Sequence record: PZ295659.1
Reading direction: 5' to 3' (one strand)
DNA length: 64,000 bases
Source: a phage
In this document: piece after piece, positions 28,047 to 46,385 of the stretch
Numbering within the stretch: position 1 is the first letter of the stretch
Layout: every line of letters starts with the position of its first letter
The notes under the pieces: model-generated
Told to the model about the DNA's origin: nothing
Database searches by the model: none
Seen by the model: only the letters and a program-made list of their open reading frames with translations
Program-made: the position numbers and the translations under genes

Positions 28047-28517
28047 TTAATCATGTTTCCACACCCCATCGGTATTTGACCAAAGTCGCTGATTATCTGA
28101 TCCTCGCCACAGTTTTTTGGTCGGAAGATTTTTCTCATACTTCCCATCAATAATAACATCAACATATTTAAGCATTTCTAGTTGTTTAATATCTTCAAAC
28201 TTATATCCTGTCCACAACCAAATGCTTTTATTGGGATAAAGATTTTTTACTGTTTGAACAATGCAATGAACAACATCTCGGTTATCAGGATAGAGAGGGT
28301 CTCCTCCAGTTATAGTTAATCCTTCTATATAATCATTATTCAAACATTCAATTAATTGTTCTAGCGTTTCACCAGTGAATGGAACGCCATTTCTAGCATT
28401 CCATGTTGATTTATTATAACACCCTTCGCATTTATGCAAACAACCGGTAACGAAAAGAACGACCCTGCAACCAGGGCCATTCACAAAATCACAGGGATAA
28501 AATCTATCATAATTCAT
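28047..28517 (-). CDS. nrdG: anaerobic ribonucleotide reductase activating protein NrdG (radical SAM)
   Basis: 156 aa; CX3CX2C-like GCRVVLFVTGCLHKCEGC; syntenic with nrdD. Confidence 0.9.
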   Translation of the reverse strand: MNYDRFYPCDFVNGPGCRVVLFVTGCLHKCEGCYNKSTWNARNGVPFTGETLEQLIECLNNDYIEGLTITGGDPLYPDNRDVVHCIVQTVKNLYPNKSIWLWTGYKFEDIKQLEMLKYVDVIIDGKYEKNLPTKKLWRGSDNQRLWSNTDGVWKHD

Positions 28518-30331
28518 TGGTGTTTAACCCTATGCATGATTTCTTTATTTTTGCCGAGATTAAATCCACGTTCGTTCGGATTTCCAAGATAACCGCATGT
28601 TCTTCTTATGGTGTTCATCTTTTTAGGATCAGTTTCTCCACAAATAGAACAAACAAATCCGTTTTCAGTAGGAGTCATTTCATGGGTACTTCCACACGTA
28701 AAACATTTATCTACTGGCATATTAACACCAAAATAATCTAAATGTTGCGCAGCATAATCCCATACAGCCTCAAGACCTTTTAGGTTATTTTTCATATCAG
28801 GAAGTTCAACATAAGAAATGTGACCGCCAGTCGCAATGAAATGATATGGGGCTTCGCGAGAAATCTTTTCAAACGGAGTAATATTTTCTTCTACTGAAAC
28901 ATGGAAACTATTAGTGTACCATCCTTTATCAGTAACATCTTTTACACTTCCATATTTTTCAGTATCGAGTTTACAGAAGCGATAGCACAGGTTTTCAGCA
29001 GGAGTAGAATACAAGCTAAAAGCAAAACCGGTTCTTTCAGTCCACTGCTTAAGACGAGCATTCATTTTAGTTAAAATTTCTTGTCCAATATCACGACCGA
29101 CAAGAATATTCAATTCGTGAATACCAATGTATCCTAGGGACACTGAACTTCTACCGTTTTTAAATAACTCAATTATGTCGTCGTCAGGTTTAAGACGAAC
29201 CCCGAATGCACCTTCTTGGTAAAGAATAGGAGCAACAGTCGCTTTAACTCCTTTTAAGGAACTAATTCTACACATCAAAGCTTCAAAACATAAATCCATT
29301 CGTTCATTGAACAATTCGGTAAATTTCTGTTCATTGAACTGTGTTCCAATATAAGAATCTAACGCAATACGAGGAAGATTCAGTGTTACAACACCAAGAT
29401 TATTACGTCCATCAAGAATTTCATTACCAGTCGAATCTTTCCATACACTCAAGAAACTACGACAACCCATTGGAGAAACAGGAATAGATGAACCGGTGAT
29501 AGCTTTATTATTCTTAACTGAAATAATATCAGGATACATTCTTTTGCTTGCACACTCTAGAGCAAGCTGCTTAATATCATAGTTCGGGTCGTCTTTATAA
29601 AGATTGACACCCTCTTCAACGAACATAACAAGTTTAGGGAAAATAGGAGTTATTCCATCACGACCAAGGCCTTTAATACGGTTTTTAAGAATTGCCTTCT
29701 GAATAATTCGTTCAGTCCAGTCAGTTCCAGTACCAAATGTAATTGTTACAAAAGGCGTTTGCCCGTTTGAACTAAAGAGAGTATTTACTTCGTATTCATA
29801 CGCTTGGAATGCATCGTATACGTCTTTTTCTGTTTTAGATTGGGCATAATTCAACGCATCAGCGATTTGCCATTTTTCTGCATCCTCAATATGTTTTGCA
29901 TAGGTGCGTTTAACATAAGGAGAAAGTACTTTATCTACATTCGCAAAAGTCGTTCCGCCATATTGATGGGAAGCAACCTGTGCAGTAATTTGTGCCATAA
30001 TTGCAGTAGCAACGCCGATTGATTTAGGAGTTTCAATCTGTGCATTACCTAGCTTAAATCCGTTTTCAAGCATTCCTTTTAAATCTACTAAACAGCAATT
30101 AGTAAATGGAAGAGCAGGGGAATAATCAATATCATGGAAATGGATAATTCCGCTTTCATGTGCTTTCATAATAAAAGACGGGACCATATTTTTGGCAATG
30201 TGCTTAGACACAATACCAGCCATAAGGTCCCGTTGAGTTGGAAAAACACGAGAATCTTTATTAGCATTCTCGTTCAAAAGATCTTTATTAGTTTTATGAA
30301 TTAATCCTTCAATTTCTTTTTCAATTTTCAT
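28514..30331 (-). CDS. nrdD: anaerobic ribonucleoside-triphosphate reductase NrdD
   Basis: 605 aa; C-terminal glycyl-radical motif RRTCGYLGNP; colinear with T4 NrdD. Confidence 0.95.
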   Translation of the reverse strand: MKIEKEIEGLIHKTNKDLLNENANKDSRVFPTQRDLMAGIVSKHIAKNMVPSFIMKAHESGIIHFHDIDYSPALPFTNCCLVDLKGMLENGFKLGNAQIETPKSIGVATAIMAQITAQVASHQYGGTTFANVDKVLSPYVKRTYAKHIEDAEKWQIADALNYAQSKTEKDVYDAFQAYEYEVNTLFSSNGQTPFVTITFGTGTDWTERIIQKAILKNRIKGLGRDGITPIFPKLVMFVEEGVNLYKDDPNYDIKQLALECASKRMYPDIISVKNNKAITGSSIPVSPMGCRSFLSVWKDSTGNEILDGRNNLGVVTLNLPRIALDSYIGTQFNEQKFTELFNERMDLCFEALMCRISSLKGVKATVAPILYQEGAFGVRLKPDDDIIELFKNGRSSVSLGYIGIHELNILVGRDIGQEILTKMNARLKQWTERTGFAFSLYSTPAENLCYRFCKLDTEKYGSVKDVTDKGWYTNSFHVSVEENITPFEKISREAPYHFIATGGHISYVELPDMKNNLKGLEAVWDYAAQHLDYFGVNMPVDKCFTCGSTHEMTPTENGFVCSICGETDPKKMNTIRRTCGYLGNPNERGFNLGKNKEIMHRVKHQ

Positions 30332-44492: not shown

Positions 44493-44951
44493 CTAGATTT
44501 TAATCACTGCTTTAGAAGCTTTTCCTGGTAGTCGTTTACTGTTAATAATAGCCATTCTGCATTGAAGAGTCTTCATTTTGAATGCTGGATTTTCGCGACA
44601 AACTGTAAGTCCTAACCAAAGATTTCCATCAGTTATTTCTAAACGGCCTGGGCGATATTCGACGCCTTCGACAAAATCTTCATCAACATCTGGACGTGCC
44701 GGCATTGATAAAAATTCTGCAACTTCTTTAACATGATTTTTTACTTTACGAAATAATTCAAAAACGTAGTTCTCATCTATTTCCCTCTGGATGGCACGAT
44801 CTAAGAGATGTTGAGAATACTTGATATGAAAGCCTGGTAGTCCAAGAGACTTTGCAGCATCTTTTATACCGGCATTTATTTTGCGGAACTCCGTTTCAAA
44901 GATTCGACGGAGTTTATTACGGCGGATAAAAACGTCTGAATTGATAGTCAT
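44493..44951 (-). CDS. regB: RegB endoribonuclease
   Basis: MTINSDVFIRRNKLRR...KYSQHLLDRAIQREIDENYVFELF...GVEYRPGRLEITDGNLWLG colinear with T4 RegB. Confidence 0.9.
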   Translation of the reverse strand: MTINSDVFIRRNKLRRIFETEFRKINAGIKDAAKSLGLPGFHIKYSQHLLDRAIQREIDENYVFELFRKVKNHVKEVAEFLSMPARPDVDEDFVEGVEYRPGRLEITDGNLWLGLTVCRENPAFKMKTLQCRMAIINSKRLPGKASKAVIKI

Positions 44952-45012: not shown

Positions 45013-45228
45013 TTATTGATAAAATGGAGTTAAAGCCCAAGATTCTTTAGATACCATATCGGCGAAATGCCTCATCTCTTCGATTTGGCGACGACGCTGG
45101 TCAGCGTAGTCTTCTTCGCCTTCTTCCTTACAATCTTCAAGGTCTTCTTCAAGATACTTTAAGTATTCACTACAAATTTTGTTGACCTTTTCTTGAAAGT
45201 CTAATAACCCTGTAATAGTAGAAGCCAT
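45013..45228 (-). CDS. hypothetical acidic protein
   Basis: 71-aa ORF. Confidence 0.45.
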   Translation of the reverse strand: MASTITGLLDFQEKVNKICSEYLKYLEEDLEDCKEEGEEDYADQRRRQIEEMRHFADMVSKESWALTPFYQ

Positions 45229-45662
45229 TAGTATTTTTCCTCAGGTCGAAATACTGCACGACACGCCCACATGCTGGCTTCTTTTAGATGTTGCTTAGCA
45301 TACTTAAGAGCCTGCACTGCATCCATATCTTCTTTGGTTTGTTGCTCTGTTTCGTTTTCTTTCAAGATATATGCTTCTTCAATCAGAGCATCAAACATCA
45401 ATCCAAGACGGACTTCTGCATCTTTAATAGCATTCACTTTACTGATTTTATCGTCGGTATGCGGCTTGTAGCCTTTGATGTCTTCAATCGACATAAGGAA
45501 TTTCCTCATCGGTGGCAAGGTCATATTCGACCAATTGGATAGGCTCATTAATACCATATCCACGTACAGTGATATCGGTTGACGGATATTTTCCAGTAAT
45601 ATCACCCGTTCTAAATGATTCAATGAATGATTGCTCGCCTGAGCAACTAAACCAGGCGGCAA
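45228..45662 (-). CDS. hypothetical protein (start uncertain)
   Basis: 144-aa track ORF; an internal Met (MSIEDIKG) may be the true start. Confidence 0.4.
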   Translation of the reverse strand: MPPGLVAQASNHSLNHLERVILLENIRQPISLYVDMVLMSLSNWSNMTLPPMRKFLMSIEDIKGYKPHTDDKISKVNAIKDAEVRLGLMFDALIEEAYILKENETEQQTKEDMDAVQALKYAKQHLKEASMWACRAVFRPEEKY

Positions 45663-45708
45663 AACATTTTAAAACATCTTCAGACCCTTCTATAATCAAT
45701 TTAGCCAT
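45484..45708 (-). CDS. hypothetical protein
   Basis: 74-aa ORF. Confidence 0.4.
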   Translation of the reverse strand: MAKLIIEGSEDVLKCFAAWFSCSGEQSFIESFRTGDITGKYPSTDITVRGYGINEPIQLVEYDLATDEEIPYVD

Positions 45709-46070
45709 TATAGACTCTCAGTAAAGGTACGAGCGATAACGTCACGCTGCTGTTCCGGAGTCAGAGAGTTAAAGCGAACTGCATAACCGGATACACGGAT
45801 GGTCAGCTGCGGATATTTTTCAGGATGCTTAACTGCATCTTCCAGAGTTTCGCGACGCAGAACGTTAACGTTCAGGTGTTGACCACCTTCAATTTTAACT
45901 TTAGGTTGATGTTCAATTTCAATTTCACGAGCATTAAAACCGTAGAAAATTTCCGGGTCTACAATAGCGTCTTCTTTAAAAGTCTTAGAGACAATAATCC
46001 GGGCTTGAGTATCGTCTTCAAAATAAATAGTGCCTTTATGTGCACCTTCAAGAATTTGATATGCTTTCAT
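45708..46070 (-). CDS. grcA: autonomous glycyl-radical cofactor (GrcA/YfiD-like)
   Basis: C-terminal [59 protein letters not shown] carries the glycyl-radical motif RVSGYAV; 3' half visibly more GC-rich than phage average. Confidence 0.8.
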
Positions 46071-46076
46071 ATAACC

Positions 46077-46385
46077 TCAATTAGAAAATAAATTTATCCA
46101 AGATTTTTCTTTAATCAAAAATGGGTCGGAATTATACGCCATTAAACTTTGAGTGATTAATCCCTTAAATGGTCCATCAATAAATTCCATTTTGAAATGT
46201 GGAATACTAGTCATCAACCGTGCATTAGGAGCAGTACAAAGAACCTGCTGCCCTGCGAACGGACCTTTAGTCAAACGATATCGTTTAGGTTTAAAATGGT
46301 AAATCTCGTAATTTTCTACAAGAGCCCTTTTATTGCATACTGGGCTGTTATAACAATACTCAAAAACTTCAATAGTGGTCATCAT
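46077..46385 (-). CDS. hypothetical protein
   Basis: Track ORF trimmed to ATG 46385, which overlaps upstream stop. Confidence 0.45.
   Translation of the reverse strand: MMTTIEVFEYCYNSPVCNKRALVENYEIYHFKPKRYRLTKGPFAGQQVLCTAPNARLMTSIPHFKMEFIDGPFKGLITQSLMAYNSDPFLIKEKSWINLFSN

Follow-up and report, generated by a model that had tools for sequence, protein, structure and literature searches.

Host grcA DNA inside the phage gene vs.6: probable gene conversion of a glycyl-radical domain in T-even phages

Introduction

Escherichia coli YfiD (GrcA) and the phage T4 protein Y06I are the only two validated spare parts for pyruvate formate-lyase (PFL) (PMC8683613). PFL activase puts a glycyl radical on either protein, and the complex that it forms with Gly734-cleaved PFL restores activity; residues 1-60 of YfiD are needed for binding to cleaved PFL and for efficient activation, not for catalysis (PMC8683613). 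In the case of T4, the finding that Y06I restored the activity of cleaved PFL in vitro is that of Wagner et al. (2001), in the form in which PMC8683613 relays it. The gene, its family and its biochemical role are already known and, since the T4 gene and its role are textbook-level, nothing presented here is new on function. Repeated host-to-phage conversion is a modest evolutionary addition.

Other phage copies of host metabolic genes provide a second comparison. Host-phage intragenic recombination in psbA and psbD of marine cyanophages is described by Sullivan et al. 2006 (PMC1484495). The gene vs.6, the subject of this work, resembles psbA and psbD in being a phage copy of a host metabolic gene and a mosaic with host patches. 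It differs from them in its carriers, which are virulent enterobacterial T-even phages with modified DNA, and in its patch, which is single, about 170 nt long, limited by homology, fixed at its left edge and up to 100% identical to the host. The cyanophage genes reportedly keep exchanging segments with the host copy, leaving mosaics with patches of host-like GC content. Closer to vs.6 in family are the GrcA homologs of T5-like phages (Demerecviridae) and of the Straboviridae genera Karamvirus and Pseudotevenvirus, which are likewise small stand-alone proteins with the same conserved C-terminal domain, but whose 3′ halves are only 72-88% identical to the sampled host alleles, compared with 98% for the tract described below.

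Here we analysed vs.6 in a 64,000-nt stretch of phage DNA (sequence record PZ295659.1), hereafter the window. Its closest described counterpart is vs.6 of T4 (Y06I), which likewise lies between vs.7 and vs.5 in the regB-denV region, encodes a protein of the same length (120 aa) with 93% amino-acid identity and has a 3′ tract that also derives from E. coli and begins at the identical left boundary. The two genes differ in the phage genus (Mosigvirus for the window, Tequatrovirus for T4), in 12% of the DNA of the 5′ half (dS ~0.45), in three synonymous changes private to the tract of the window and in the codons near the stop (GAG AGT CTA in the window, GAA AGT TTG in T4). A full-text search, outside the reach of which lie key older T4 papers, found no paper on the DNA-level mosaic of vs.6.

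Results

The gene and its neighbourhood

The window phage was a Mosigvirus, that is, an RB69/JS09-like T-even phage. The vs.6 open reading frame was a clean ATG-to-TAA frame, and the features that define it and its immediate surroundings were located from the ORF list and the sequence as follows:

45708..46070, (-) strand: vs.6 ortholog, complete CDS, 120 aa plus stop (ORF list)
46075..46078, (-) strand: Shine-Dalgarno-like GAGG, 4 nt 5′ of the ATG, overlapping the vs.7 stop (sequence and ORF coordinates)
45484-45708: vs.5 ORF, downstream of vs.6 (ORF list)

The stop of vs.6 and the ATG of vs.5 overlapped as TAATG. Because the GAGG overlaps the vs.7 stop, vs.7 and vs.6 are tightly packed and their co-transcription is probable. 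No convincing sigma-70 promoter was found directly 5′ of vs.6 on the (-) strand, and the promoter scan returned no more sites than shuffled controls did.

According to the JS09 annotation, denV-ipII-vs.8-vs.7-vs.6-vs.5-vs.4-vs.3-regB is a conserved block, and the synteny of the window from vs.8 through vs.7, vs.6, vs.5, vs.4 and vs.3 to regB matched both JS09 and T4. The presence of a colinear 363-nt gene between vs.7 and vs.5 in the regB-denV block places the window gene in the T4 vs.6 orthologous group of the Straboviridae. At the nucleotide level it was 97-98% identical to vs.6 of the Mosigvirus phages DCP548 and JS09; JS09_063 is annotated as vs.6/GrcA, so that databases already label this gene GrcA. 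In T4, vs.6 (NP_049730.1; NC_000866, 63557-63919; 363 nt) encodes a product of 13.8 kDa and was the sole GrcA-like match in T4 records among the matches listed, which give one place per record. On the basis of this size and of this sole match we took T4 vs.6 to be the Y06I of Wagner et al. 2001. Judged by sequence, the window gene is thus the Mosigvirus ortholog of T4 vs.6 (Y06I), of the autonomous glycyl-radical cofactor type.

Two neighbours of vs.6 in the window had recognisable families. The frame at 44493-44951 (-) encoded the RegB endoribonuclease (Pfam REGB_T4, 9e-69), which confirms the T-even regB-denV block. The one at 45228-45494 (-), two genes 3′ of vs.6, was a vs.4 homolog matching Acb2_Tad1_hairpin (Pfam, 1e-17), a family of phage sponges for cyclic-nucleotide immune signals.

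The protein and its radical site

Vs.6 of the window is a protein of 120 aa and 13.9 kDa in which Gly_radical (PF01228, residues 59-101, 2e-18) was the only Pfam domain, and PHROG 1209 covered its full length (6e-63). The top solved structure in a phmmer search of the PDB was E. coli GrcA (6OWR, 3e-42). Residues 57-120 also matched residues 696-759 of PFL (1H16 and others; phmmer, E 3e-26, coordinates only); this segment, approximately 696-759, is the PflB fragment lost on oxygen cleavage, a match expected of a GrcA-type spare part. The radical site was placed as follows:

45786..45788, (-) strand: codon of Gly95, predicted glycyl-radical site in RVSG95YAV (sequence, computed position)

In a residue-by-residue alignment to 6OWR, Gly95 corresponded to Gly102 of GrcA and, from the PFL match, it would be equivalent to Gly734 of PflB. 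The original prediction, made from the letters of the sequence, had recognised both the RVSGYAV motif and the identity of the last ~60 residues to E. coli GrcA. Both were borne out: the motif is the same as in E. coli GrcA, with residue 95 as the radical glycine, and the C-terminal residues were identical at 60 out of 60 positions. By contrast, the first 60 residues shared 18 identities with GrcA (~30%), and lacked the conserved SFWLLD motif; the phage protein was 7 residues shorter overall. The promoter and regulatory context is also the phage's, not the host's. With the GrcA equivalog model TIGR04365 (NCBIfam), Vs.6 of the window scored 160.9 bits over residues 18-120 and so fell narrowly short of the 170-bit cut-off, compared with 233.9 bits for E. 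coli GrcA. The shortfall is due to the diverged N-terminus, and Vs.6 is therefore best filed as a phage subfamily (PHROG 1209) of GrcA-like proteins, not as a strict equivalog.

A 173-nt tract of host-like DNA

Comparison with E. coli grcA and with other phages divided the gene into three parts:

45891..46070, (-) strand: 5′ half, codons 1-60, AT-rich, strongly diverged GrcA N-terminal region of the phage lineage (nucleotide comparison, hhalign)
45718..45890, (-) strand: host-derived conversion tract, gene nt 181-353, codons 61-117 plus 2 nt (170/173 vs E. coli grcA)
45708..45717, (-) strand: phage-type tail, last 7 coding nt plus stop, G AGT CTA TAA (phage/host comparison)

The tract, which encodes the structured glycyl-radical domain, shared 170 of its 173 bases with grcA of E. 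coli strain 1190 (98.3%), and the best E. coli alleles reached 98.9%, whereas the codon-aligned 5′ half shared 88 out of 180 (49%; Fisher p = 1e-29 vs the tract). The last 183 nt as a whole were 96.7% identical to E. coli grcA. The identity profile was a step, not a gradient: it stood at 96.7% from codon 61 (GAA GGT GGT...) to the stop and collapsed upstream. A blastn comparison with E. coli grcA, which had been proposed as a check, found a match in all 5,426 complete E. coli genomes searched (91% over the last 222 nt). The GC-richer, host-like composition that had been noticed by eye held up as well, GC being 0.49 in the tract, 0.33 in the 5′ half and 0.37 in the whole window, while GC3 was 0.40 in the tract and 0.20 in the 5′ half, compared with 0.42 in the tract of E. 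coli.

The window was one of many carriers. T4 differed from E. coli at one site of the tract, two IMG/VR relatives (L085 and L087) at none, and 639 phage records matched the 3′ end of E. coli grcA at 95% or more. Citrobacter, the next host genus after Escherichia, was ~89% identical to the phage tract. A laboratory or assembly artefact was rejected given the presence of the tract in these 639 independent records and in IMG/VR contigs. PflB and TdcE were likewise rejected as donors, as their C-termini differ in amino acids (MNREMLLDAME...TQSM) and the tract encodes GrcA exactly.

Protein constraint and the direction of transfer

In order to place the tract we compared 80 bacterial grcA loci (GTDB species representatives) and 80 viral loci (IMG/VR). 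Over the last 180 nt, other genera were at most 92.8% identical to E. coli (Citrobacter), with most Enterobacteriaceae at 85-89%. No other genus came as close to E. coli as did the window (96.7%), T4 (98.3%) and six IMG/VR relatives (96.7-98.9%), meaning that the phage tract nests inside Escherichia.

High identity of this kind could in principle arise without any recent transfer, if extreme purifying selection together with codon-usage selection had kept the 3′ half host-like. The C-terminal 60 residues are indeed near-invariant across bacteria and phages, and host grcA is a strongly expressed gene. The synonymous sites refute this explanation, which we regard as having almost no chance of being correct. 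The same 60 amino acids were encoded by the phage orthologs L095-L097 and by Enterobacter phage PF-CE2 with only 82.8% identity to E. coli over the last 180 nt, corresponding to 31 synonymous differences at ~45 synonymous sites (dS ~2). Over the same 180 nt the window had 6 (binomial P ~1e-14), and some sister phages had 0 in the tract. Since orthologs with the identical 60 residues reach only ~83%, protein constraint cannot explain 98-100%, and the tract is recent Escherichia DNA. The tract also tracks the host genus, the E. coli and Klebsiella alleles being only ~87% identical to each other. An anciently diverged phage gene, the outcome that would have spoken against the original prediction, was likewise not what we found: the tract was 98% identical to the host and 76-84% identical to the tracts of phage orthologs without a host-like tract.

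Identity alone gives no direction, and nothing specific was found in favour of the reverse transfer, in which E. coli (and Klebsiella) would have received the 3′ half of grcA from T4-like phages. We give this direction hardly any credence. The 3′ halves of the host genes follow the host phylogeny (Escherichia sp. 98.9%, Citrobacter 92.8%, Salmonella 83.9%), and E. coli grcA had diverged from its relatives to a concordant degree in both halves, as would fit vertical inheritance in the host. Moreover, in GC and GC3 the tract is on a par with the host gene and clearly exceeds the phage's own values, and the phage tracts are mosaics of the alleles of host species. Host 3′ halves that track the host phylogeny in step with the 5′ halves, together with the host-like composition of the tract, establish a host-to-phage direction.

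Conversion within an older phage gene

The original prediction had described the N-terminal half as AT-rich and unlike GrcA, and had proposed that capture of the 3′ part of host grcA produced a chimera. In this form, illegitimate recombination would have joined the 3′ end of host grcA to a phage ORF with no relation to it, making a new gene, as might be suggested by the abrupt change of identity and GC right at codon 61 and by an N-terminal half that, by eye, shares only ~30% of its residues with GrcA. The half is AT-rich, but it is not unrelated. When profiles of nine phage and 19 bacterial N-termini were compared with hhalign, they aligned over 47 columns with a probability of 94% (E 1.2e-7), and the phmmer alignment to 6OWR and the match to the NCBIfam model TIGR04365 both began at Vs.6 residue 18-20. 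The phage region is thus a diverged homolog of the N-terminal half of GrcA; codons 1-60 correspond to the part of E. coli GrcA that is disordered in solution. In the window this 5′ half was 74-76% identical to Karamvirus-type orthologs and 88% identical to T4, with dN/dS ~0.16 between the N-terminal halves of the window and T4, indicating purifying selection.

The architecture of the gene also precedes the tract. All 27 T4-like orthologs extracted, from every Straboviridae lineage examined, were colinear at 363 nt/120 aa. They include genes of the Karamvirus type (L090-L094, fGh-Ecl01) and of the Pseudotevenvirus type (L095-L101, PF-CE2), in which the 3′ half separated long ago from that of all sampled hosts (dS above 1). 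The 120-aa architecture therefore exists in phages without a host-like 3′ half. At the other end of the gene, the final 10 nt of the window were identical (10/10) to those of the unconverted phages L095, L100 and PF-CE2 and shared 7/10 with E. coli (GAA AGC CTG TAA), although this right-hand boundary rests on three informative bases, which selection on the overlapping vs.5 start could also hold in place. The left edge was uniform: apart from one end-of-record fragment in each set, it fell at nt 199-200 of E. coli grcA (all 60 matches listed) and at nt 202 of the Klebsiella-type allele (all 40 matches listed). It coincides with the end of host-phage similarity, as homology-limited gene conversion predicts.

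A homologous N-terminus, colinear unconverted orthologs and a phage-type tail together indicate that no fusion took place and that a grcA already present in the phage was converted. The window gene accordingly combines host-like synonymous sites, diverged phage flanks (the right one defined by 3 sites) and a pre-existing gene. A fusion origin was already disfavoured by these data and we now consider it very improbable. What stands of the proposed capture is the recent Escherichia DNA (98%); what falls is the making of a chimera. We put at roughly 85% the probability that vs.6 is an older phage gene for a PFL spare part, whose 3′ radical-domain segment was overwritten by E. coli grcA via gene conversion.

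As a mechanism we infer homologous recombination, in the form of gene conversion. The recombination enzymes of T-even phages work readily on short stretches of homology, and T4 genetics makes routine use of crosses between the phage and homologous DNA cloned in the host. An AT-rich, phage-adapted 120-aa copy of grcA would already have been present in T4-like phages. In the Tequatrovirus and Mosigvirus lineages, which infect E. coli, a host grcA fragment would have invaded the 173-nt segment of vs.6, the only part similar enough to recombine, and the E. coli allele would have overwritten it. The 5′ half, being diverged, and the final 10 nt would have stayed as they were. Once converted, the segment would be a better target for the next event.

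Age of the tract

Between the window and the T4 group, dS ranged from 0.40 to 0.53 for the 5′ half and from 0.09 to 0.20 for the 3′ half, with synonymous differences of 13/37 and 6/45, respectively (p = 0.03). The lower dS of the 3′ half implies that the tract is younger than the split between the two phage genera in vs.6, or that it has been refreshed since. Three variable sites of the phage tract shared their base with polymorphic E. coli metagenome alleles, one of them by a transversion. As a sign of recurrence, this overlap of phage variants with E. coli polymorphisms is only suggestive.

Separate events in Klebsiella phages

Recurrence was clearest in Jiaodavirus, a group of T4-like Klebsiella phages, for which megablast with E. 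coli grcA gave identities of only 85-89%. A metagenome scan with Klebsiella-type GrcA found full-length 127-aa bacterial genes (L168-L171) on gut metagenome contigs of up to 122 kb, whose nearest reference was a Klebsiella MAG (86-88% over the locus). The Jiaodavirus tracts (L164-L167, L250, L251) were 95-98% identical to these bacterial genes and shared with them unbroken runs of 98-129 bases from the common left edge onwards. In all, 105 phage records carried the Klebsiella-type tract at 95% or more.

Within the tract, the host allele L171 differed from L168-L170 by six synonymous substitutions, and these sites could be followed in the phages. Merci had all six in the L170 state. Nispero and AM_K4 combined two L170 with four L171 states, and JD18 had four L171 and two L170 states. 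Hence, different Jiaodavirus phages hold different combinations of the sites that separate two host alleles. The right edge of the tract was longer in Nispero. Compared with VMC05, Nispero had 0/180 differences in the 5′ half and 9/173 in the tract (p = 0.0015), and 4 of these 9 fell on the diagnostic host-polymorphic sites.

Independent events have thus tracked different host alleles, of the E. coli type in Tequatrovirus and Mosigvirus and of the Klebsiella type in Jiaodavirus. To account for these sequence patterns, no fewer than three host-to-phage events are needed, of which one has E. coli as its source and the others at least two Klebsiella alleles, and conversion looks ongoing. Klebsiella phages have undergone this process independently of the E. 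coli phages, and repeatedly, with alleles of Klebsiella as donors.

Other phage lineages

The recent tract was absent from Karamvirus-type, Pseudotevenvirus and T5-like homologs, which were 72-88% identical to any sampled host allele; on these grounds, repeated host tracking in every phage lineage was rejected. When 20 host grcA 3′ ends were joined into one megablast query, no phage record averaged 95% or more, a figure in which pieces were merged and their identities averaged.

Some individual homologs had features of their own. T5-like IMG/VR contigs (L126-L150 and L163, 104-121 kb) carried a full-length 127-aa GrcA homolog whose 3′ module was only 72-75% identical to any sampled host allele, which points to an old acquisition with no recent conversion. 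The tract of the Pseudotevenvirus PF-CE2 (L248) was 88% identical to a bacterial metagenome allele (L243/L244), with a more similar central stretch, and may be what is left of an earlier conversion by DNA of a different host. On a 19-kb IMG/VR contig (L113), ORF 1291-1797 encoded a host-type GrcA of 168 aa with a 3′ module 91% identical to Yersinia grcA; the contig, although classed as viral, probably holds bacterial DNA here and not a phage gene. Finally, in a 167-kb T4-like contig (L110, IMG/VR_UViG_2974754850), the vs.6 frame at 1489-1650 stopped after ~50 codons while tblastn gave 89% across the gene. A frameshifted or pseudogenised vs.6, or a sequencing error, is possible there.

Discussion

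The first reading of this locus was partly supported: its observation was confirmed and its interpretation was changed from the capture of a host fragment to the probable overwriting of a segment in a gene that the phage already had. The sequences show the mosaic, where its boundaries lie, its origin in the host and its recurrence. Its proposal that the product is a spare part for PFL agrees with what has been established for the T4 ortholog Y06I, in the account of Wagner et al. 2001 that PMC8683613 provides. By orthology (93% amino-acid identity to Y06I), Vs.6 of the window would be a PFL spare part too, and by analogy with GrcA it presumably shares the spare-part mechanism with PflA and oxygen-cleaved PflB. 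The host activase PflA would install the radical on Gly95, and the C-terminal domain would slot into the oxygen-damaged PFL in place of the fragment lost by cleavage at Gly734. Production of acetyl-CoA and formate would be restored, and an infected cell in the microaerobic gut could keep fermenting; we infer this role during infection in vivo. Since the radical domain is unchanged, Gly95 included, its catalytic fit to host PflB should be assured. The N-terminal half differs, so any phage-specific behaviour would be expected in recognition or activation.

The window also contains a second glycyl-radical system. At 28514-30331 (-), 15 kb away from vs.6, lies a gene for NrdD, an anaerobic ribonucleotide reductase (605 aa; Pfam NRDD, 1e-170, plus Gly_radical), and directly downstream of it, at 28047-28517 (-), one for a 156-aa NrdG-like radical-SAM/4Fe-4S protein (Fer4_12, 1e-48). 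Vs.6 might therefore mainly serve the phage NrdD or, through its N-terminus, act as a competitor or decoy for host GrcA, PflA or PflB. The presence of NrdD and of an NrdG-like radical-SAM activase in the phage speaks for such a role, and nucleotide metabolism has been suggested as its field of action in early comparative work (PMC1524935). Furthermore, the half of GrcA that governs binding to cleaved PFL and activation (PMC8683613) is exactly the half that diverges in the phage. On the other hand, the radical domain is the same as that of GrcA and closest to PflB 696-759 (3e-26), not to NrdD, and T4 Y06I revived cleaved PFL in vitro (Wagner et al. 2001, as relayed by PMC8683613). Repeated conversion to the grcA allele of the current host also suits a protein that fits host PflB and PflA. 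We consider a main role with NrdD or as a decoy unlikely, and favour the PFL spare part.

Beyond the single tract of the window, vs.6 of enterobacterial T-even phages may be a hotspot in which the radical domain is repeatedly overwritten by the grcA allele of the current host (that of E. coli, or one of at least two from Klebsiella) while the N-terminal half evolves independently, a generalisation towards which we lean. If so, the hotspot would keep the phage spare part an exact fit for host PflB and PflA, and the phage-specific N-terminal half may tune when and how it is used. It would also be a rare measurable case of chromosomal host DNA entering virulent phages with modified DNA, and a natural marker of this flux.

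T-even phages break down the DNA of their host and carry modifications on their own, and little exchange with the host chromosome is usually attributed to them. They nevertheless bear a patch of 173 nt whose identity to the host gene reaches 100% and which was apparently acquired repeatedly from different hosts. vs.6 thus provides a clear-cut case, found in nature, of an auxiliary metabolic gene that undergoes homology-limited conversion by host DNA, and a simple, amplicon-scale system for measuring the frequency of conversion. The protein splits into a host-matched radical domain and a phage-specific N-terminal half, and it is in the latter, which in GrcA controls the binding of damaged PFL, that phage-specific behaviour should be sought.
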